Positions 2,774-50,891 of a stretch of DNA of 64,000 nt are shown here, piece after piece. Source of the DNA: an uncultured Candidatus Saccharibacteria bacterium (GTDB taxonomy: Bacteria; Patescibacteriota; Saccharimonadia; Saccharimonadales; JACDBH01); assembly GCA_964642275.1 (NCBI GenBank), contig CAZXOA010000003.1:5593-69592 (forward strand). Reading direction: 5' to 3'. The stretch's first letter is position 1; every line of letters starts with the position of its first letter. A program made the translations under genes and the position numbers. The notes beneath the pieces are model-generated. The model had not been told where the DNA came from, made no database searches, and saw only the letters and a program-made list of their open reading frames with translations.

Positions 2774-3064
2774 CTATCTTACGATAGCCACTATGTCTTC
2801 CTCGCGGATCAGCTGATAGTCGTCGCCACCGAATTCCAGCTTGGCATCGGTGCTGGCATAGTTTTTTGCAATAACTCTATCGCCCACTTTTACTTCAGCA
2901 ACCGCCTTGCCCACAGCCACAACCTTCAGGGTTGTATCCTCGTCCTTGACCGATGCAGCCAGCAAGATGCCGCTGCCTGTTTTGAGTTCTTTTTTCTCTT
3001 CGCGGACGCATACCACGAAGTCCCTGAGAGGGGTAATTGGCACAGTGTTTGCCATGTCTGTCAT
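2774..3064 (-). CDS. groS: co-chaperonin GroES (Cpn10)
   Basis: 96 aa, directly upstream of groEL on the same strand. Typical ...ITPLRDFVV...SGILL...VVAVG...GDRVI... pattern. Confidence 0.95.
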   Translation of the reverse strand: MTDMANTVPITPLRDFVVCVREEKKELKTGSGILLAASVKDEDTTLKVVAVGKAVAEVKVGDRVIAKNYASTDAKLEFGGDDYQLIREEDIVAIVR

Positions 3065-3162: not shown

Positions 3163-3726
3163 CTATGAATCGAAGGGAACTATCTCAAAGCCAGCTCTAA
3201 AGGCATGGTTCATCTCTCTCAGTCCTTTTATAGAACCCAGATGCTGCTGGACGCTACCAAGAACCAATTCCTCATCAAATACCTCAATTTCTTCCGAGAG
3301 TCCCTTACTAAAGAGCTCTCGAGCTTCCGATGTTCTGTCATTTTTATGCATGTAAGGTCGAACTCCTTCGGCATCAATTTCAAACATCGCCTCTGTCTCA
3401 TTAGCCTCGACATGCCGCAGCCATATCCTATTGAGAAATGCGTCGGGTACTGCGTCGACTGGCACAAATACATACATGTGACGCTTGCTCAGTGCACCCT
3501 TGGCACTCAGAAACTGTTGTTTTGAGTCCATGCGGAAGGCAACAGTATGCTCAGGTGTTTCGACCGCTACTCCTTGTAGATAGCCCTTTTGAGTTGCCTC
3601 AAGAGAAACGGCACGTCTATATGCAAGACTAGCACGCTGTAGGAGCAGCCGCCTCAAGCGGTGCTCTCTGTCCATAAGGACTTCCAAGTTTTGTGCGCGT
3701 TCTGAAGTGTTCATATTTATAAACAT
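3163..3726 (-). CDS. hypothetical protein (187 aa), no family recognised
   Basis: ORF track. Longest frame here, with overlapping ORFs that are shorter and low-complexity. AT-rich upstream region. No TM or signal peptide seen. Confidence 0.55.
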   Translation of the reverse strand: MFINMNTSERAQNLEVLMDREHRLRRLLLQRASLAYRRAVSLEATQKGYLQGVAVETPEHTVAFRMDSKQQFLSAKGALSKRHMYVFVPVDAVPDAFLNRIWLRHVEANETEAMFEIDAEGVRPYMHKNDRTSEARELFSKGLSEEIEVFDEELVLGSVQQHLGSIKGLREMNHAFRAGFEIVPFDS

Positions 3727-3848
3727 ATTTTAGAATAAAGTTTATAAATAATCAATTATATTCTTGATAAATCAATGCCAGAGGTGTATGATTGGCTGAA
3801 TCCCTAACCTGGGACACCGACGACCACATACAAAGGAAGTGGTAGTAC

Positions 3849-4229
3849 ATGTACAACAGCCAGATCGGCCAATTCAACATCGAAAGCATGGTGCTGGATC
3901 CGCCGCCCTACATCCGCCTCTGGACTGACGCTCCAGTCAACTCACCTGTCGCTCTCGAGTGGCTCGAGGAACTGCGTAATGGTCCCCGGGGCGTGGCGGA
4001 GATCACGGACATCAGCGTCGGCGAACACTATGTCATCCTCGAACTATCCGATGTTGTCAGCGACAGCGAGGAGGCCCGCGAGGTCGTGCGTTGCTTCATG
4101 CAGCGCGTGGCCACAGCCGCGACTGAGTTCACCGAGTGGGACATCGCTCGCTTCAGGAGCCTCGCCGTGTTCGACCCGCGTCGGGCGGAGGTGGTCTACG
4201 CGCCTACTTCGATGACGATCGATCACTGA
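3849..4229 (+). CDS. hypothetical protein (126 aa) in a high-GC islet
   Basis: ATG preceded by AAGGAAG. Acidic soluble protein. Visibly higher G+C than its neighbours (39/60 in the one line I counted, 4081-4140). Confidence 0.55.
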   Translation: MYNSQIGQFNIESMVLDPPPYIRLWTDAPVNSPVALEWLEELRNGPRGVAEITDISVGEHYVILELSDVVSDSEEAREVVRCFMQRVATAATEFTEWDIARFRSLAVFDPRRAEVVYAPTSMTIDH

Positions 4230-4394
4230 ACGTCGGGACCCGGATGGCCATCGGAAGACAATGTCGTCTTCCCTTGCCCATCCGGGCTCTGGGCTTGGTT
4301 TTACCGGGTAGAGTATTTTGACCGACGCATCTGCGCCGACCAACCTAACTCCCGACCAAAACCAAGCCCGATCCCAACCTTTTAGCTATTTTGT

Positions 4395-4420
4395 CCGCCA
4401 CGAAGGCGGTTTTTTATTTT
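4395..4420 (+). terminator. rho-independent terminator closing the high-GC islet (overlaps the stop of the convergent Mur ligase gene)
   Basis: CCGCC-ACGAA-GGCGG stem-loop (4395-4409) followed by TTTTTTATTTTT. Confidence 0.6.
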
Positions 4421-5664
4421 TCTAGGATTTCACGTGCGATTTCGCGTTCGTCCCACGGCATTTTTTTGCCGCCCATGGTGCGGTAGGTCTGGTGGCCGAT
4501 ACCTGTCAGCAACACGGTGTCGCCAGGTTTTGCCTCTGATAATGCCTGTCTGATAGCGTCTTTTCTATCTGGAATCACCTGGGTTTTGGCCTCGCCATCC
4601 GTCTTTTTGATACCTTCGTACACGGCATCAATGATTGCCTGCGGGTTCTCGGTATACGTCTCGTCATCTGTCAGATAGACATAATCCGCCAGGTCGGCCG
4701 CAACTTTGCCCATATCCGGCCTCTTGCCCTTGTCACGGTCGCCCGTGGCGCCAAATACCAGCCGGATATTCCCCTTTGTGGTGTCTCTGACAGTCTGCAG
4801 TACGTTTTTTAGCGCCTCGGCTGTGACGGCATAGTCCACAATCACCTCAAAGTCCTGTCCGGCCCCGATGCGCTCCATACGCCCCGGCACGCGCTTTAGG
4901 CTGGCAATCCCCTGCTCTATCTGATCGCCGGATAGCCCCACGGCTCCGCCGACACCAATGGCCGCCAGGCAGTTGTAGATATTGAACCGCCCAGGGATAT
5001 GACAGGTAATTTTTAGTTCCTTCCCCTTATAAAAAGCCGTAAACGTTGAGCCCGAAGCCGTCAGCGTGATGTCCCGTGCCTGCAGATCACCCTTGTCCAC
5101 CCCATACAAAATGGGGTTTGTGATGTCGCGCTTGAACAGCTCGGCATTGGGATCTTCGGCGTTGATAATCCCCACGCGCAGGCCCTTCTTATGCCGATTC
5201 GCCTGCTGGAATAATTTGCGCTTAGCGTCGCGATACTTTTCAAACGTCTCATGATAATCCAAGTGCTCATGTGTGACATTGGTCATAACGGCAATTTCGT
5301 ACGGCACGCCCCATGTCCGCCCCTGATGCAAAGCATGGCTTGAGGTCTCTAACACTACCCACTCCACGCCATTTTGTTTCATCTTGCCGAGCATATCCAG
5401 CAGCATGCTGACGCTCGGGGTTGTTTGCGATGTAGGACTCGGCTCTTCGCCGCTACCATAGTCTACGACTACAGTTGTAACCAGACCCACCTTGATACCG
5501 CTATCTCGCAGCATCTGAGCAACCATCAAGCAAGTCGTTGACTTACCATCAGTACCCGTTATACCAATAACCCTCATGCCGCGCAGCGGAAAGCCTCGTA
5601 ACCCATGATGCAAAACAGCCTCGATACGATGCAGCGGCGGCTTTATAGCTTCGACAATACCCAT
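4414..5664 (-). CDS. murE: Mur ligase, MurE-like, lacking the usual N-terminal domain
   Basis: 416 aa. P-loop GITGTDGKSTT at residues ~35-45. MurE-like C-terminal block DYAVTAEAL...FGATGDRDKGKRPDMG...YLTDDETYTENP. Confidence 0.8.
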   Translation of the reverse strand: MGIVEAIKPPLHRIEAVLHHGLRGFPLRGMRVIGITGTDGKSTTCLMVAQMLRDSGIKVGLVTTVVVDYGSGEEPSPTSQTTPSVSMLLDMLGKMKQNGVEWVVLETSSHALHQGRTWGVPYEIAVMTNVTHEHLDYHETFEKYRDAKRKLFQQANRHKKGLRVGIINAEDPNAELFKRDITNPILYGVDKGDLQARDITLTASGSTFTAFYKGKELKITCHIPGRFNIYNCLAAIGVGGAVGLSGDQIEQGIASLKRVPGRMERIGAGQDFEVIVDYAVTAEALKNVLQTVRDTTKGNIRLVFGATGDRDKGKRPDMGKVAADLADYVYLTDDETYTENPQAIIDAVYEGIKKTDGEAKTQVIPDRKDAIRQALSEAKPGDTVLLTGIGHQTYRTMGGKKMPWDEREIAREILEK

Positions 5665-5687: not shown

Positions 5688-6755
5688 ATGAGAATTTTGG
5701 GCATAGAGAGCAGTTGCGACGAAACGGCAGCCGCGGTGGTCGAGATTGATGGCAGTCTGAACTGCACGCTGCTATCGAACGTAGTAGCCAGCAGCATGGA
5801 TCTTCACGTGCAATACGGCGGCGTGGTGCCCGAGATTGCAGCGCGTAGCCATATCGAGTCGATCATCCCTGTTATTGACAGGGCCGTCGCGCCTATCGGC
5901 TGGAATAACATTGACGGCATTGCCGTCACCCACGGGGCAGGACTCGGCGGTTCGCTTCTGGTAGGTGTCATGACCGCCCGTACATTGGCAATCACCAAGA
6001 ATAAACCCCTGTATGCCATGAACCACGTCGAGGGGCATGTCTACGCCAACTTCATTACCAAGACTCCCTTGTCCGGGTACGCCTTGCCGACTGCCGCGCC
6101 TGAATTCCCTTGTCTCGCCCTGATTGTCAGCGGCGGACACAGCCAATTGGCGCTCTTCCGTGATCATTTCGATTACACCTTGCTTGGGCAAACACAGGAC
6201 GATGCCGTTGGTGAGGCCTTTGATAAAGTAGCCAAAATTATCGGCCTGCCCTACCCTGGCGGCCCTTCTGTCGGTAAAAAAGCTCTTGAAGGCGACCCGC
6301 ACGCTTTCAACCTTCCAAAAGCAAAGATGGAGCGGAAATACGATTTTTCATTCTCCGGCCTAAAAACAGCCGTCCTACGGCAGGCACAAACCATGTGCGG
6401 GCAAGATTTCACGTTTCCATCCAGAATGCTGCCAGAGGCCCTCTCAGAGCCTCAGAAGGCCGACATTGCAGCTGTATTCCAACGTGTATCTATCGAAACC
6501 GTGGTTGATAAGACGACCCAAGCCTTTGAGGAGTTCTCTCCTGCCTCGGTGGTCATCGCTGGCGGCGTAGCTGCATCACCGGAGTTAAGACGCCAGCTCA
6601 AAGAGAGATTGCCCATAGAAATAAACTATCAGGACCCCAAACTCTGCACCGACAACGGTGCCATGATCGCTGCCCTCGGCGCCTTCAAAATGAAGCTCGG
6701 CCAGCCCGCCGCTGAACCCTACTCTCTCGAGATCCAACCAAACCTATCGATGTAG
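5688..6755 (+). CDS. tsaD: tRNA N6-adenosine threonylcarbamoyltransferase TsaD
   Basis: 355 aa. N-terminus MRILGIESSCDETAAAVV and the rest are typical of the Kae1/TsaD family. Confidence 0.95.
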   Translation: MRILGIESSCDETAAAVVEIDGSLNCTLLSNVVASSMDLHVQYGGVVPEIAARSHIESIIPVIDRAVAPIGWNNIDGIAVTHGAGLGGSLLVGVMTARTLAITKNKPLYAMNHVEGHVYANFITKTPLSGYALPTAAPEFPCLALIVSGGHSQLALFRDHFDYTLLGQTQDDAVGEAFDKVAKIIGLPYPGGPSVGKKALEGDPHAFNLPKAKMERKYDFSFSGLKTAVLRQAQTMCGQDFTFPSRMLPEALSEPQKADIAAVFQRVSIETVVDKTTQAFEEFSPASVVIAGGVAASPELRRQLKERLPIEINYQDPKLCTDNGAMIAALGAFKMKLGQPAAEPYSLEIQPNLSM

Positions 6756-27264: not shown

Positions 27265-27370
27265 CAGAAAATATCACCTTGCCACTAGCTACTAGTCACT
27301 GGTTGCCAAATCATCTATAATCTATCTGAAGATCAACTCTTCTTGTAAGGTGGGCATATAATTACTATTT

Positions 27371-28282
27371 ATGGATCCAAATAATCAGATTCCGACTCCT
27401 TATCCCCAAGCAGGCGATCAGCCTGCGCCTGCAAACATAGCCCCCGGCAGTGTCCCGATTGGTCCACAAGGGCAGTATACGCAACCTGGATATGCCCCCC
27501 AGGCACAAGCCGCAAATACCGGACAAACCGCGGCGCCGGTCAGGCAGACAAACCCCAATAGTACCCAGAATACCCTCCAGGTTGCCGAGGTAAGGGATGG
27601 TATTGTTATCATGAACGATGGCTCATTCCGGTCGGTGCTTATGCTCAGGAGCATTAACTTTGACCTTATGAGCCCGCAGGAACGCGAATCTGTTGAGTAT
27701 GCATACCAAGGATTCCTGAATTCGCTTTATTTTCCAATCCAGATACTGGTGCGCTCGCGCAAGGTTGATATCCGGCCCTACATAGAGAAGCTCGACAAAA
27801 TCCGCTCAGAACATGACAACATGCTGCTGGCACTGCTTATGGAAGACTATATTGACTTCATGGGCAATATCGCCATGCAGACAAACATCATGGATAAACA
27901 ATTTTATATCGTGGTGCCTTTTATACCCGAAGGCCTTGAGGCTCAGAAGGCAATTGAGGCAAGTAAAAACTTTATGAATAACCTGCTTGGGGCATTCAAA
28001 AAAAGCCAGGAACAGCACGTAACCATAAACGAGGCCGATCTGGAAGCTGCAAAGACAGAGCTGCGCAATCGCGTGCAGGCGGTTTTGGCGGGCCTGCTTC
28101 AAACTGGCGTGCAGGGCCTGCCGCTCGATACTCAGGAACTCATTGAGCTTTTCTATGACACCTACAACCCGGATACGGCAACCCGGCAGCAGCTTCGCAA
28201 CTTTGGCGACCTTACAGCTCCTGTTGTCACCAAGGGCCAGGGAGAGGCAACGCAGCCAAATCTTCAGAAGGAACTAAGATGA
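27371..28282 (+). CDS. hypothetical protein resembling a VirB4/TrbE N-terminal domain without an ATPase domain
   Basis: 303 aa. Pro/Gln-rich N-terminus, then VRDGIVIMNDGSFRSVLMLRSINFDLMSPQERESVEYAYQGFLNSLYFPIQILVRSRKVD. No Walker motifs. Confidence 0.5.
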   Translation: MDPNNQIPTPYPQAGDQPAPANIAPGSVPIGPQGQYTQPGYAPQAQAANTGQTAAPVRQTNPNSTQNTLQVAEVRDGIVIMNDGSFRSVLMLRSINFDLMSPQERESVEYAYQGFLNSLYFPIQILVRSRKVDIRPYIEKLDKIRSEHDNMLLALLMEDYIDFMGNIAMQTNIMDKQFYIVVPFIPEGLEAQKAIEASKNFMNNLLGAFKKSQEQHVTINEADLEAAKTELRNRVQAVLAGLLQTGVQGLPLDTQELIELFYDTYNPDTATRQQLRNFGDLTAPVVTKGQGEATQPNLQKELR

Positions 28283-28289
28283 TAGGGAA

Positions 28290-28317
28290 ATTTTCAATTT
28301 TCAATTTTCAATTTTCA
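28290..28317. repeat. heptanucleotide tandem repeat ATTTTCA x4
   Basis: Read directly: attttca attttca attttca attttca, followed by degenerate atca/atcatca. Confidence 0.95.
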
Positions 28318-28367
28318 ATCAATCATCAATGCCATGATGAATTAAATAGCGCTGCGCAGCAGCTGCC

Positions 28368-28403
28368 TTCATTGCAAATTGTTCATTGCAAATTGTTCAT
28401 TGC
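28368..28403. repeat. 14-nt tandem repeat TTCATTGCAAATTG x2.6
   Basis: Read directly: ttcattgcaaattg ttcattgcaaattg ttcattgc. Ends 18 nt before the virB4 ATG, just upstream of SD GAAAGGAG. Confidence 0.95.
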
Positions 28404-28421
28404 TCCTGAAAGGAGCGTCTG

Positions 28422-30341
28422 ATGGCTTTTGGCAAAAAAAATGATGCCGCTGCAAGCGACCCTGTTGCATTGGCCCAGGCTCAGAGGCTCCGTGAAGAGC
28501 AAGAGGTACAGGCAGCATTCCAAAAAGGCATTACCGCGCTACGCGATTTTATTGCCCCAAGTTCGATCGAATTCCAGAGCGGATTTTTCCGCATCGGCAC
28601 ACGTTATGCGCGAACTTTTTATGTCTACGGCTATCCAAGACAGATCTTCACTGGCTGGCTCAGCGGCATGGTTAATCTTGATGAAGTCATCGACCTGAGT
28701 ATGTTTATCTATCCCGTGGAGAGTCAAGTGGTGCTCGAAAACCTCCGCAAAAAGGTCACCCAGCTCGAAGCTGGTCTGCAAATCGATGCCGAGAAGGGCC
28801 GTGTCCGCGACCCGGGCAAGCAGGCGGCAATCCAGGACGCTGAAGAAATGCGCGACAAACTGCAGGTAGGCGAAGAGCGATTTTTCCGTCTTGGCCTTTA
28901 CTTTACCCTGTACGCTGGCAGCCAGGAAGAGCTTGAGTTTGTCACCCACAAGGTTGAGTCTCTGCTTGGCCAGCAGCTCGTCTACAGCAAGCCCGCCAGC
29001 GCTCAGCAAGAGCAAGGACTCAACAGCAGCGTGCCTCAGTTTACCGACCAATTGCAGATCAGGCGCAACATGAACACCGGAGCCCTGAGCACAACTTTTC
29101 CGTTTACATCGGCAGATCTCAGTCAGGAAAACGGCATTATGTATGGTATTAATATGCACAACTCAGGGCTGGTTATCTTTGACCGTTTCTCTCTCGAAAA
29201 CGGTAACTCAGTGGTGTTTGCCAAGTCTGGTGCTGGTAAAAGTTTTGCTGTGAAGCTCGAAGCATTGCGATCGCTTATGTTCGGCACCGAGATATTTATT
29301 ATCGACCCGGAGAACGAATACCAGCGCATGGCCGAAGCGGTTGGTGGAGCCTATGTACGGCTCAGTCTCAACTCTGTCACCCGCATCAATCCGTTTGACC
29401 TCCCTCAGGTTGTCGACAGCGAGGAGGCTGACAATGCACTGCGGAGCAACCTCATCACCCTTCACGGGCTCCTACGCCTCATGATGGGCGGAGCACAGGC
29501 GCAGATGGCAGGACAGCAAGCCGGTGCAATCATGCCAGCCCTGAGCCCGGTCGAGGAGGCTGATCTCGATGCAGCGCTTATCGAGACGTACGCTCGGGCA
29601 GGGATTACCAACGATCCGCTCACACACCAGTCGCCAGCTCCGACTATTGCCGACCTGTACGACGTACTCCTGCACATGGGTAATACCGGGCCGCAGCTTG
29701 CCCAGCGGCTGCGCAAGTACACCAGCGGTACTTTTGCGGGTATTTTCAGCCAGCCGAGCAATATCGATATCAACAATCCGTTGGTAGTATTCAATGTCCG
29801 TGACCTCGAGGACGAACTTCGTCCAGTAGCAATGTATATTGTCCTGAACTATATCTGGAACAAAACCAAGGCTGACCAAAAGCGCCGTATTCTAGTGGTC
29901 GACGAAGCCTGGCAGCTTATGAAGTATGAAGATTCGGCCAGCTTCTTATTCTCATTAGCCAAGCGAGCGCGCAAGTACAACCTGGGTATCACTACTATTA
30001 CGCAAGATGTTGAAGATTTTATGGGCTCACGTATGGGTCGTGCAATTGTTGCCAACGCCAGTATGCAGCTGCTGCTCAAGCAGTCTACATCTGCGGTTGA
30101 CGTCTTGTCGGAGGTGTTTAAGTTGACGAGCGAAGAGAAGAAACGGCTTAGTCAATTCCCGGTTGGGCAGGGACTGTTCTTTGCCGGGCAAAATCATGTT
30201 CATATTCAGATTTTGGCCAGCCCAACCGAACAAGGGCTTATAACCACCAACCCATCACAAGTACAGGCCATGGAGGCTGGCGAAATAAGCCAGGGGCAAG
30301 GTACAATAGACCTTGATAACAGATTAGCTCCAGGGATGTAG
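28422..30341 (+). CDS. virB4: VirB4-family T4SS ATPase
   Basis: 639 aa. Walker A VVFAKSGAGKSF, Walker B RILVVDEAWQLM. N-domain ...FIAPSSIEFQSGFFRIGTRYARTFYVYGYPRQIFTGWL typical of Gram-positive-type VirB4 (PrgJ/TrsE-like). Confidence 0.9.
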   Translation: MAFGKKNDAAASDPVALAQAQRLREEQEVQAAFQKGITALRDFIAPSSIEFQSGFFRIGTRYARTFYVYGYPRQIFTGWLSGMVNLDEVIDLSMFIYPVESQVVLENLRKKVTQLEAGLQIDAEKGRVRDPGKQAAIQDAEEMRDKLQVGEERFFRLGLYFTLYAGSQEELEFVTHKVESLLGQQLVYSKPASAQQEQGLNSSVPQFTDQLQIRRNMNTGALSTTFPFTSADLSQENGIMYGINMHNSGLVIFDRFSLENGNSVVFAKSGAGKSFAVKLEALRSLMFGTEIFIIDPENEYQRMAEAVGGAYVRLSLNSVTRINPFDLPQVVDSEEADNALRSNLITLHGLLRLMMGGAQAQMAGQQAGAIMPALSPVEEADLDAALIETYARAGITNDPLTHQSPAPTIADLYDVLLHMGNTGPQLAQRLRKYTSGTFAGIFSQPSNIDINNPLVVFNVRDLEDELRPVAMYIVLNYIWNKTKADQKRRILVVDEAWQLMKYEDSASFLFSLAKRARKYNLGITTITQDVEDFMGSRMGRAIVANASMQLLLKQSTSAVDVLSEVFKLTSEEKKRLSQFPVGQGLFFAGQNHVHIQILASPTEQGLITTNPSQVQAMEAGEISQGQGTIDLDNRLAPGM

Positions 30342-49544: not shown

Positions 49545-50891
49545 ATGGCTTCACTTTCAAGTATCAAGTATCAAGTATCAAGTATGCCGAGGATATCCCT
49601 TTGGATATTTTTTAGCCTGCTGGCGTATATGCCGCTGCATATCTTTCTGTCGACATGGATCGGTACGAGTTTTGGGGTTTTGGATTTTGCAAAGATCGTC
49701 AAAGACGTAGTGTTAGTTATCGGCGCCCTGCTGATTGTTATCGCGAGTGTGCGCGAGCCGTGGTTCAAGACATTTCTGCGCGACAAGCTTGTGTGGCTTA
49801 TTGGCGGCTATGCTGCCTTAACACTCTGCATGGCACTCATCAAGCCGACTGATGCCGATGCCGAGGTGCTTGGCATTGTCTATAACATACGATTTCTGCT
49901 CTTCTTTGTGTATGCTTGGTTGCTTACTTATTTCTACCAAGTAGGATGGTTGCGGCGGACCGCTCTCAAGATAGTTCTCGGCATAGCAACTATCGTGATG
50001 CTGTTCGGGTTTGTGCAATACATGTGGCTGCCCGACAATGGGCTGGCGCACGTAGGCTATTCAAGAGAAAGCGGGGTTCTGCCAGCCTTTCATATTGATG
50101 ACAAGCCGGATCTGGAGCGCGTAATGTCTACTCTGCGGGATCCAAATTCATTTGGTTCGTATATCATTATTATCTTGGCAATCACCCTTGCCTACCTGAT
50201 GCGCACTAAGGATCGGGACCTAAAAAAGGCGCTAGCCGGGCTGGCCGTGCTTAGTGGGATGTGTTTACTGTTTACCTTCTCGAGGAGCGCCTGGCTTGGC
50301 GCTGTTGCTATGATACTGACAATCTTAGTGCTCCGGCTGAAGGCAGACGGCAGGCTGCGGTTTCACCCCGGTTGGGTAATAGGACTGGGCTTGGTTCTGT
50401 TCGTAACGATAGCCGGTCTCTATGCGGCGCGCGACACGTACTTTGTCAGGAACGTCATCTTTCATGCAGACAGCAGTACAGTGCTCGAGGATCCCAACCA
50501 GTTGAGGCTGCGGTTTTGGCGCGAGTCTATCGAATCTGCCGCTAAAAATCCTCTGGGCAACGGCCCTGGAACGGCCGGGCTGGCTTCTATCAGGAATGAA
50601 AAACAGGGTGTCGTATTGAATGAAAACTACTACCTGCAGATACTCCATGAGGTTGGTATTATCGGTCTGGCGCTGTTCGCTACAATTTTGGTAGTGGTAT
50701 TTTTGCGACTGATTCGCAATTATTCAGATCCGCTGACTGCTGGACTCATAGCTTCGTTCATTGGCCTTTTGCTGACAAACTTTCTTGTCCATATATGGGC
50801 AAACGAAGCAGTTGCCTATACGTGGTGGGGCTTGGCCGGGCTGGTCATACCAATGGTGGCTGCTAACAAACCAGCAAAGCGCCGCATTTGA
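49545..50891 (+). CDS. O-antigen ligase/polymerase-like (Wzy_C-type) polytopic membrane protein; start 49545 or 49584
   Basis: 448 aa, at least 10 TM. Characteristic LLFTFSRSAWLGAVAMIL segment and large loop ...RFWRESIESAAKNPLGNGPGTAG... Confidence 0.8.
   Translation: MASLSSIKYQVSSMPRISLWIFFSLLAYMPLHIFLSTWIGTSFGVLDFAKIVKDVVLVIGALLIVIASVREPWFKTFLRDKLVWLIGGYAALTLCMALIKPTDADAEVLGIVYNIRFLLFFVYAWLLTYFYQVGWLRRTALKIVLGIATIVMLFGFVQYMWLPDNGLAHVGYSRESGVLPAFHIDDKPDLERVMSTLRDPNSFGSYIIIILAITLAYLMRTKDRDLKKALAGLAVLSGMCLLFTFSRSAWLGAVAMILTILVLRLKADGRLRFHPGWVIGLGLVLFVTIAGLYAARDTYFVRNVIFHADSSTVLEDPNQLRLRFWRESIESAAKNPLGNGPGTAGLASIRNEKQGVVLNENYYLQILHEVGIIGLALFATILVVVFLRLIRNYSDPLTAGLIASFIGLLLTNFLVHIWANEAVAYTWWGLAGLVIPMVAANKPAKRRI
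49557..49585. repeat. heptanucleotide tandem repeat (T)CAAGTAT x4 at the 5' end of the O-antigen-ligase-like gene
   Basis: Read directly: t caagtat caagtat caagtat caagtat g. The last unit supplies the AT of the in-frame ATG at 49584. Confidence 0.95.

Follow-up and report, generated by a model that had tools for sequence, protein, structure and literature searches.

A repeat-rich spacer upstream of virB4 in a Saccharibacteria type IV secretion operon is probably a PF05635 cassette remnant that has lost its gene and persists as a proposed translated relay

Introduction

Why should 139 nt of densely repeated sequence stand between two genes of a type IV secretion system (T4SS) operon whose other genes are almost all tightly packed? 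The question arises in a 64,000-nt stretch of Saccharibacteria (TM7) DNA (the window), which holds a T4SS operon encoding a PrgI-family protein, a 303-amino acid (aa) TraC-like protein, VirB4, and two M23-peptidase proteins, as assigned by Pfam. The operon matches the conserved patescibacterial T4SS, and epibiotic growth reportedly needs the Saccharibacteria T4SS (10.1101/2025.01.22.634366). While the other junctions in this operon measure 3, 3, 3, and −11 nt, with the exception of a 106-nt gap (27265-27370) before the TraC-like gene, the TraC-like gene and virB4 are separated by 139 nt (28283-28421). Our analysis of this spacer and of related loci suggests that it is probably the gene-less remnant of a cassette that carries a PF05635 gene and resembles the intervening sequences (IVSs) of rRNA, and that it persists as a relay, itself translated, from the TraC-like gene to virB4. 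The origin as a remnant is more certain than the relay function.

Results and discussion

Architecture of the spacer and its absence from close relatives

The two tandem arrays in the spacer have the top two Tandem Repeats Finder (TRF) scores of the window. The original prediction, which was made from the sequence alone, had pointed to these repeats, a palindrome, the Shine-Dalgarno (SD) sequence and ATG of virB4, and an A8 run, and all of these are present where it had placed them. It was also right that the spacer is out of keeping with the rest of the operon. However, the region is not free of open reading frames (ORFs), since a 47-codon ORF (28279-28422) runs through it. The features of the junction are as follows.

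28283-28421, + strand: whole insertion, made up of the 5′ arm, the ends of a putative relic ORF, the apical palindrome, the 3′ arm, and the SD hairpin
28279-28422, + strand: 47-codon putative relay (bridging) ORF, its ATG overlapping the upstream stop (ATGA) and its TGA overlapping the virB4 ATG (TGATG)
28289-28319, + strand: AATTTTC ×4.4, TRF score 62, 100% matches
28289-28331, + strand: 5′ arm, consisting of AATTTTC ×4.4, then CAATCATCA, then the relic start codon ATG (28329-28331)
28334-28345, + strand: ATGATGAATTAA, putative relic of the last four codons and stop of a lost four-helix-bundle gene
28351-28360, no strand assigned: 10-bp palindrome GCTGCGCAGC, read directly, at the apex between the arms
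28368-28403, + strand: TTCATTGCAAATTG ×2.6 (the 14-mer array), TRF score 72, 100% matches; 3′ arm and inverted counterpart of the 5′ arm
28402-28416, + strand: SD hairpin GCTCC-TGAAA-GGAGC, in which an upstream anti-SD pairs with the virB4 SD (AGGAG, 28411-28415)
28408-28415, + strand: SD sequence GAAAGGAG of virB4
28422, + strand: ATG of virB4

Comparison with related loci (designated by L and a number) indicates that the 139 nt are a lineage-specific insertion, and that the ancestral junction was coupled, with stop and start sharing 1 nt. In ∼55 of 79 related loci the last base of the TraC-like stop is also part of the virB4 start (TAATG or TGATG), and the closest relatives in a large protein database, with VirB4 proteins 95% and 93% identical to that of the window, likewise have the 1-nt overlap and no spacer. 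The insertion is missing from the closest relatives L086-L089 and from L002. About 15 lineages carry additional bases at this junction, ranging from 22 to 516, and only L004 and L014 have spacer sequence in common with the window. No second strain with this spacer was found in metagenome, protein, or contig indexes, and a metagenome scan using the spacer ORF returned no strain-level relatives, its matches being AATTTTC arrays in unrelated GC-rich genomes.

Among the spacers of other lineages, that of L096 (3974-4112, at the TraC-like/virB4 junction) is also 139 nt long and also holds a 47-aa relay ORF. Its sequence, with about 11 GATCGAA-type heptamers followed by TCCTCAG-type heptamers, is unrelated to that of the window, and the equal length is probably a coincidence.

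Gene-bearing cassettes in other lineages

At the same TraC-like/virB4 junction, L017 and L041 carry a gene for a protein of 128-133 aa that belongs to Pfam PF05635, a family of four-helix bundles under the name "23S rRNA intervening-sequence protein". L041 has three PF05635 genes at three junctions of one operon and L043 has one, and the cassette family counts more than 7,000 proteins at E≤1e-10. The cassette genes of L017, L041, and L043 are bordered on either side by short arrays that repeat every 7 nt, the one at the 5′ side being complementary to the one at the 3′ side. Within the T4SS operon, cassettes are inserted at the PrgI/TraC-like and TraC-like/VirB4 junctions and between VirB4 and the next gene; other cassettes lie after T4SS pilin genes, upstream of the DNA polymerase III delta gene, and after the gene of a giant surface protein, and both orientations are found. 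As judged from these varied sites and both orientations, the cassette is mobile. Near homologues of the L041 protein have arms that are alike, 5′ AATTTTCAATTTT.CAATTTACAATCAAT-N4-5-ATG and 3′ ...TGAATGAAAATTGAAAATTG. In L102-L107, which have a more distant homologue after the giant surface protein, the arms differ in a compensating manner (in L102, AATTTCGA is paired with TCGAAATT), and the arms of the full cassette in L099 form a 35/36 inverted repeat.

The three cassettes of L041 (metagenome-assembled genome ASO77) lie at 1871-2236, 3478-3879, and 5959-6351, each with arms of its own (CAATTTT, GAAGCAC, and TGAGTAG). In L090, a PemK/MazE toxin-antitoxin pair (4014-4570) adjoins the PrgI gene, and the operon also has a PF05635 cassette and a heptamer spacer; an operon of this type seems to accumulate selfish insertions.

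The spacer aligns with cassettes from which the gene is deleted

The left half of the spacer and the leader of the L041 four-helix-bundle gene are identical at 39 of 44 positions, and the alignment stops exactly at the ATG of that gene. The alignment score of 61 compares with 20.2 ± 3.8 for shuffled sequences, none of 1000 shuffles scoring as high. As would be expected of a gene-less derivative, the 5′ end of the spacer is thus homologous to the 5′ arm of the cassette up to the position of the start codon. When the genes are deleted from the cassettes of L041, L090, L096, L098, and L099, the spacer aligns with them end to end, in the order 5′ arm, ATGcc, ATGATGAATTAA (facing the last codons TTGAAGAATTGA), and 3′ arm. 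The ATGATGAATTAA stretch aligns with TTGAAGAATTGA, TTGAAAAATTGA, and TTGAATAAATGA at the 3′ ends of cassette genes; it is short, and the view that it preserves the final four codons of the lost gene together with the stop is suggestive only. On the same alignment, the 5′ arm is composed of the AATTTTC array and the "decaying" ATCAATCATCAATG / CAATCAATCATCA up to the relic ATG, and what the original prediction described as decay into ATCA/ATCATCA is the conserved inner end of this arm. The repeats probably did not originate at this locus; both arrays are read as the complementary arms of an inserted PF05635 cassette without its gene.

Because AATTTTC arrays recur as a simple repeat, the non-repetitive signature CAATTTWCAATCAAT-N3-6-RTG was tested. 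It has a single match in the window (28309-28331), where 0 are expected. Of 140 fetched loci, 13 have a match, and these are the ones with a cassette of this subfamily. All 13 of these matches end on the start codon of the cassette gene.

A viral origin of the arm motif was considered and rejected. In none of 32 viral contigs with AATTTTC arrays (0/32) is the array followed by a PF05635 gene, and for that reason the array alone is not diagnostic. These IMG/VR contigs (L109-L140, with GC contents of 0.21-0.63) carry at least 3.4 exact AATTTTC units, and some carry at least 11-12 (L114 and L124); the arrays are mainly intergenic and frequently lie just upstream of a start codon. In L085 (2965-3037), which is GC-rich and not from Saccharibacteria, an AT-rich hairpin of the form (GAAAATT)n-loop-(AATTTTC)n adjoins a start codon, and in the human-gut contigs L081 and L083 (∼3001-3040) an AATTCTC/AATTTTC array runs into the ATG of another gene. 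The arm motif therefore reaches past this phylum.

In a multiple alignment, the right half of the spacer lines up with (GAAAATTG)n arms and with the spacers of L004 and L014, whose right halves are homologous to the 3′ arm. Position and periodicity, together with complementarity to the left arm and this homology, lead us to infer that the right half is a 3′ arm.

Pairing and periodicity of the arms

Their complementarity indicates that the two arrays are both arms of one stem. The predicted arm-arm RNA duplex in the window has an energy of −17.0 kcal/mol, compared with −8.7 ± 2.5 for shuffled sequences (z = −3.3; 3/500), and the 3′ arm matches the reverse complement of the 5′ arm at 20 of 25 positions. 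Similarly, the z of the arm duplex lies between −2.4 and −4.1 in the first five full cassettes and reaches −9.1 in L099. When eight spacers were folded whole, z ranged from −1.6 to +1.5, and only the test of arm against arm was informative. Between the arms, the palindrome GCTGCGCAGC is predicted to fold as a small apical hairpin, to which we assign no separate function.

The arms also share a 7-nt phase. In 36 of 36 arms (from 11 full cassettes, each with its two arms, plus 14 segments of short spacers, whose boundaries were set partly by eye), the best self-match falls at a lag of 7 or 14, as opposed to ∼11% of random 45-mers from the same loci. The window arms themselves match best at lag 7 (left) and lag 14 (right), so that the spacer has the complementary arms with 7-nt periodicity that a gene-less derivative should have. 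In 807 kb, 6 of 15 period-7 arrays lie within virB4 spacers. The arm sequences are diverse (AATTTTC, GAAGCAC, TGAGTAG, TAAGACN, AGGGTNT, ACAGTCA, AAGTTCA, GATCGAA, and CAAACTT), and since they vary while period and complementarity are kept, the constraint would be structural rather than sequence-specific. The copies in both window arrays are perfect and those in the homologous arms of other cassettes degenerate, suggesting a recent expansion or homogenisation by slippage in this lineage.

The variability of the arms bears directly on the proposal of the original prediction that the repeats form an iterated operator that binds a regulator or set the spacing of an internal promoter of virB4. The 14-mer unit does contain the small palindromes TTGCAA and AATT, and both arrays lie less than 130 nt from the virB4 start. 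However, from one species to another the arms at this junction have entirely different sequences (AGGGTNT, ACAGTCA, AAGTTCA, GATCGAA, CAAACTT, and others), which is unfitting for a conserved regulator; the 7-bp phase does not suit such an operator either, and most relatives are without any spacer. A scan for promoters and terminators found nothing on the + strand of the spacer, where no sigma-70-like promoter is predicted, and the sole promoter-like match is weak, on the − strand, and created by the repeat itself. We therefore consider regulation by an operator or internal promoter in the spacer very improbable. A promoter-like site is found further upstream, at 27293-27321 inside the 106-nt gap before the TraC-like gene (sigma-70-like, TAGTCA-17-TATAAT, 10/12), and may be an internal promoter for the unit of TraC-like gene, relay ORF, and virB4.

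An alternative present-day role for the stem is IVS-like RNA processing, in which a cut by RNase III at the arm-arm stem of the polycistronic mRNA would part the TraC-like message from that of virB4 and determine how stable each is relative to the other. This is compatible with an origin as a cassette remnant and competes only over present function. In rRNA IVSs, a PF05635 ORF likewise lies in a loop bordered by complementary sequences (PMC4990558), PF05635 ORFs occur in rRNA insertions within the candidate phyla radiation (CPR) (PMC11270868), and RNase III binds or cuts Correia elements that lie in operons (PMC2649163). The pairing of the window arms beyond chance agrees with this, but at −17 kcal/mol the stem is weak, with breaks every few base pairs, the spacer as a whole folds in no unusual way, and the stem would be melted if ribosomes constantly translated the relay ORF. 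Processing at the stem is thus unlikely, though it deserves to be kept in mind.

Relay ORFs at spacer-bearing junctions

Overlapping stop and start codons (ATGA, TGATG, and TAATG) are the classical arrangement of translational coupling. The ancestral junction, TAATG or TGATG, is of this kind, and the same overlaps are found at both ends of the 47-codon ORF, whose peptide is MIGKFSIFNFQFSINHQCHDELNSAAQQLPSLQIVHCKLFIAPERSV. Here, however, coupling is apparently relayed via an inserted, non-conserved ORF and not directly from gene to gene. The arrangement is not peculiar to the window. In 13 of 13 short spacers, one ORF runs from the upstream stop (ATGA, GTGA, or TAATG) to within 7 nt of the virB4 start, while the other two frames contain stops; the combined shuffle P for the open relay frame is ∼10^-9.7, which is something of an overstatement, since the loci lack phylogenetic independence and a single insertion underlies the spacers of the window, L004, and L014. 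L017 and L041 have a second small ORF, leading from the stop of the cassette gene to the virB4 start. Likewise, L090/L091 and L096, which were fetched for another reason, have a relay ORF, and the gene caller had annotated that of L091. Relay ORFs are thus present at 17 of 17 spacer-bearing junctions examined (the 13 short ones and those of L017, L041, L090, and L096), which argues for selection keeping translational coupling. Moreover, an overlap of the upstream stop with a start codon is seen in 14 of 15 spacer-bearing loci and in only 5 of 62 spacer-free loci (Fisher p = 2e-10).

The SD sequence of virB4 is predicted to be paired with a probability of 0.96, in the hairpin GCUCC-UGAAA-GGAGC. 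The mean predicted pairing of this sequence is 0.73 in spacer-bearing and 0.46 in spacer-free loci (Mann-Whitney p = 5.6e-4).

Since the relay peptides of most loci are unrelated to one another, conservation appears to concern the open frame and not the protein. That the 47-aa product is itself a genuine, functional small T4SS protein is, in our view, extremely improbable, even though its ORF is perfectly embedded in the operon. Its C-terminal 19 residues resemble those of the L004 peptide, with a weaker match to L014, but this similarity is attributed to conservation of the DNA of the 3′ arm and the SD hairpin. A direct count over the stretch in common gives 3 synonymous and 5 non-synonymous differences. 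Spacer-ORF peptides at this junction are otherwise unrelated and vary from 8 to 57 aa, the window peptide has no Pfam hit, and the ORF is missing from most relatives. A conserved small protein was accordingly rejected, as the peptides are unrelated across loci.

Proposed origin and function of the spacer

Building on the observed insertion, its homology to the cassette, the complementarity and 7-nt periodicity of its arms, and the conserved architecture of the relay ORFs, we propose the following course of events. The cassette, which is small and common in Saccharibacteria, would have inserted at the TraC-like/virB4 junction with its 1-nt overlap and then lost its gene, leaving the 5′ arm up to the relic ATG, about a dozen bases that resemble the last codons of the gene, the apical palindrome, and the 3′ arm. 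Ribosomes ending the TraC-like gene would re-initiate at the overlapping ATG (ATGA, 28279) and translate 47 codons across both arms and the SD-sequestering hairpin. Their termination at TGATG, on the virB4 start itself, would relay translational coupling to virB4. Translation of the ORF, re-initiation, and any RNA processing at the stem are in this scheme predictions from sequence.

Several observations weigh against this proposal, in addition to the arm boundaries set partly by eye and the shared ancestry of three of the spacers. No PF05635 gene is present in the window, where a tblastn search with a cassette protein gave E>1, and in place of the PF05635 protein that a full cassette has between its arms only the relic ATG and ∼12 nt would be left. 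The right half of the spacer does not match the 3′ arm of the L041 cassette significantly, this being the sole cassette 3′ arm compared. At most one other, weak copy of the arms exists in the window. AATTTTC arrays recur in unrelated genomes without a PF05635 gene, and the similarity of the left arm is for this reason partly one of low complexity. Arm pairing is not significant in the spacers of L004, L014, L029, and L031, and the fold of the whole window spacer is ordinary (z = −0.75 and −1.28). Finally, the relay peptides are not conserved, and the exact sequence of the window peptide is not in a collection of 15 billion proteins.

Slippage of the arrays and a possible phase switch

The original prediction also held that the repeats are slipped-strand sites that tune expression of the ATPase. 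In part this stands: perfect copies must come from slippage, and their number could affect VirB4 expression. The route it envisaged, through promoter spacing or an operator, is unsupported. A phase-variable switch could instead work through the relay ORF, if slippage of heptamers or 14-mers shifted its frame so that ribosomes stop before the sequestered SD, and/or altered an RNase III-sensitive hairpin. After a gain or loss of one or two heptamers, or of one 14-mer, the relay ORF would either end 13-99 nt before virB4 or run on beyond its start, the stops after heptamer changes lying 63-99 nt ahead of virB4; only ±3 heptamers restore it. The perfection of both arrays, compared with the degenerate homologous arms, points to recent slippage. 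In addition, an independent Logan contig ends at 28319, the first position at which an allele of at least 5 units would diverge; the break is ambiguous, however, since copy-number heterogeneity in the sample would produce it, but so could a further occurrence of the same 30-mer in the sample, low coverage, or sequencing stutter. The AATTTTC unit shows a natural ±1-unit difference at one site in related viral contigs, L129 having one unit more than L116, L119, L126, and L127.

Contingency loci have long tracts, typically well above 5 units. The tracts in the window are not long, and they are placed where, as far as the sequence can tell, a change in unit number would alter expression. Heptamer arms are found on every cassette whatever the neighbouring genes, so their presence here needs no locus-specific function, and virB4 retains an SD of its own, so that uncoupling might have only a mild effect. 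A precedent is Haemophilus influenzae hmw1A, where a 7-nt repeat, (ATCTTTC)n, also forms the left arm of a hairpin upstream of a surface/secretion gene (PMC12721329, PMC8262952); there the repeat is the left arm of a long hairpin cleaved by RNase III, and it controls expression and changes in repeat count (PMC12721329). At both loci, unit number could act on expression post-transcriptionally. However, hmw1A naturally has at least 11 units, a G-rich right arm, and demonstrated copy-number variation and RNase III cleavage (PMC12721329), whereas the window has only 4.4 and 2.6 units and a right arm that is itself built of repeats. Unlike that of hmw1A, the window repeat derives from an inserted cassette. 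Taking these points together, we find a phase switch at this junction doubtful.

The Logan contig (L108, SRR16797981_193170; 1080-1158) carries an identical TraC-like gene and ends at the last base of the AATTTTC array.

Comparison with known elements

The full cassettes encode the same protein family as the 23S rRNA IVSs of Coxiella burnetii and Leptospira, with their S23p/PF05635 ORFs (PMC4990558), and as the 23S_rRNA_IVP ORFs of CPR bacteria (PMC11270868). Like the cassettes, rRNA IVSs have the ORF in a loop and a stem of complementary borders, and gene-less short versions are known of both. However, rRNA IVSs sit in rRNA helices, whereas the Saccharibacteria cassettes lie in protein-coding operons and intergenic regions; the window spacer lies between two protein-coding genes and not in helix 9, 25, or 45 of 23S rRNA. 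Rfam searches of the spacer region at a permissive threshold and of the entire window at the gathering threshold gave no relevant family, the hits being limited to four tRNAs and one chance snoRNA-like match, with no rRNA in the window. The cassette arms are strictly 7-nt-periodic, and such periodicity is unmentioned for rRNA IVSs in PMC4990558 and PMC11270868. The cassettes at coupled junctions are also threaded by relay ORFs, unlike rRNA IVSs.

Correia repeat-enclosed elements and other bacterial MITEs (miniature inverted-repeat transposable elements) are likewise ∼100-150 bp long, have inverted-repeat ends, are co-transcribed in operons, and can form hairpins (PMC2649163, PMC10969869). As in MITEs, the gene-less form here shares its ends, terminal inverted repeats, with a longer gene-bearing form that would be the autonomous element. 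In contrast, no clear target-site duplication, high copy number, or transposase partner was found: TGA or ATGA is all that the junctions have in common, and selection for overlapping codons accounts for this as well, and while Correia elements and MITEs are present in hundreds of copies per genome, the window has one clear and one weak copy in 64 kb. To our knowledge, PF05635 is not a recognised transposase, and we know of no transposase partner. Unlike MITEs, the cassette arms vary in sequence between copies and keep their complementarity and 7-nt phase.

Palindromic elements of Rickettsia, reportedly described by Ogata et al. in 2000 and mentioned in PMC1458961, are said to have inserted in frame into coding regions. 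They are likewise palindromic selfish insertions that persist by keeping a reading frame open. The Rickettsia elements extend existing proteins, whereas the window insertion constitutes a separate mini-ORF overlapping the stop and start of its neighbours.

The origin and mobility of rRNA IVSs and the role of their four-helix-bundle ORF have been described as unclear (PMC4990558). With gene-bearing and gene-less cassettes side by side in ordinary operons, the Saccharibacteria loci offer a comparative system for the movement of the element and for the roles of its arms and protein. The relay ORFs suggest how an insertion can persist in an essential, tightly coupled operon, namely by keeping up the flow of ribosomes, and repeat-rich "intergenic" spacers in CPR genomes may be translated and should not be taken for promoters or operators by default. 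Searches of the literature under the family names and for cassettes of this kind brought up no account of their location in operons, their heptamer arms, or the relay ORFs. It is possible, although we regard it as speculative and improbable as a whole, that PF05635 cassettes with complementary, 7-nt-periodic arms make up an undescribed mobile IVS-like class found in Saccharibacteria in gene junctions, translationally coupled ones among them, as well as in rRNA, that mini-ORFs relay ribosomes across them, and that slippage of the perfect heptamers, by shifting the frame of this relay, makes a T4SS ATPase phase-variable by a novel mechanism. If so, element and host would coexist because overlapping mini-ORFs close each gap that the element makes, and if the arrays do slip, they would constitute a new type of phase switch on a secretion ATPase.

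Flanking genes and other repeats in the window

The genes on either side of the spacer and the A8 run in virB4 are as follows.

27371-28282, + strand: gene of the TraC-like protein (VirB4 N-terminal-domain-like), 303 aa, TGA stop at 28280-28282, from the ORF list
28422-30341, + strand: virB4, 639 aa, T4SS ATPase, with Pfam PF19044, PF12846, and PF01935
28434-28441, + strand: A8 run in virB4

The VirB4 protein of the window is 82-91% identical to its counterparts in 80 species-level Saccharibacteria genomes. Homologues of the TraC-like protein are 59-81% identical and lie upstream of virB4 in 79 of 80 loci, and the orthologues in related loci carry the annotation PF26593. In exact-sequence look-ups, both VirB4 and the TraC-like protein were single-member clusters. 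The A8 run was considered as a slippage site and rejected as ordinary: it encodes a conserved N-terminal Lys-Lys(-Asn), and A-runs of 5-8 are present in 45 of 75 related loci.

A further perfect heptamer array, TCAAGTA ×4.1 (49557-49585, TRF score 58), lies in a 55-nt divergent gap, with no complementary arm visible nearby. It falls at the 5′ end of a + strand ORF (49545-50891), and an alternative ATG (49583) comes directly after it.

Lastly, a 127-nt gap on the − strand (2647-2773), at what reads from the termini as a groES/groEL junction, has a modest, non-random similarity to both arms of the virB4 spacer and no relay ORF. It matches the reverse complement of the 14-mer array at 18 of 19 positions (1/500 shuffles), with 5/500 for the other half, and may be a second, more decayed gene-less cassette.

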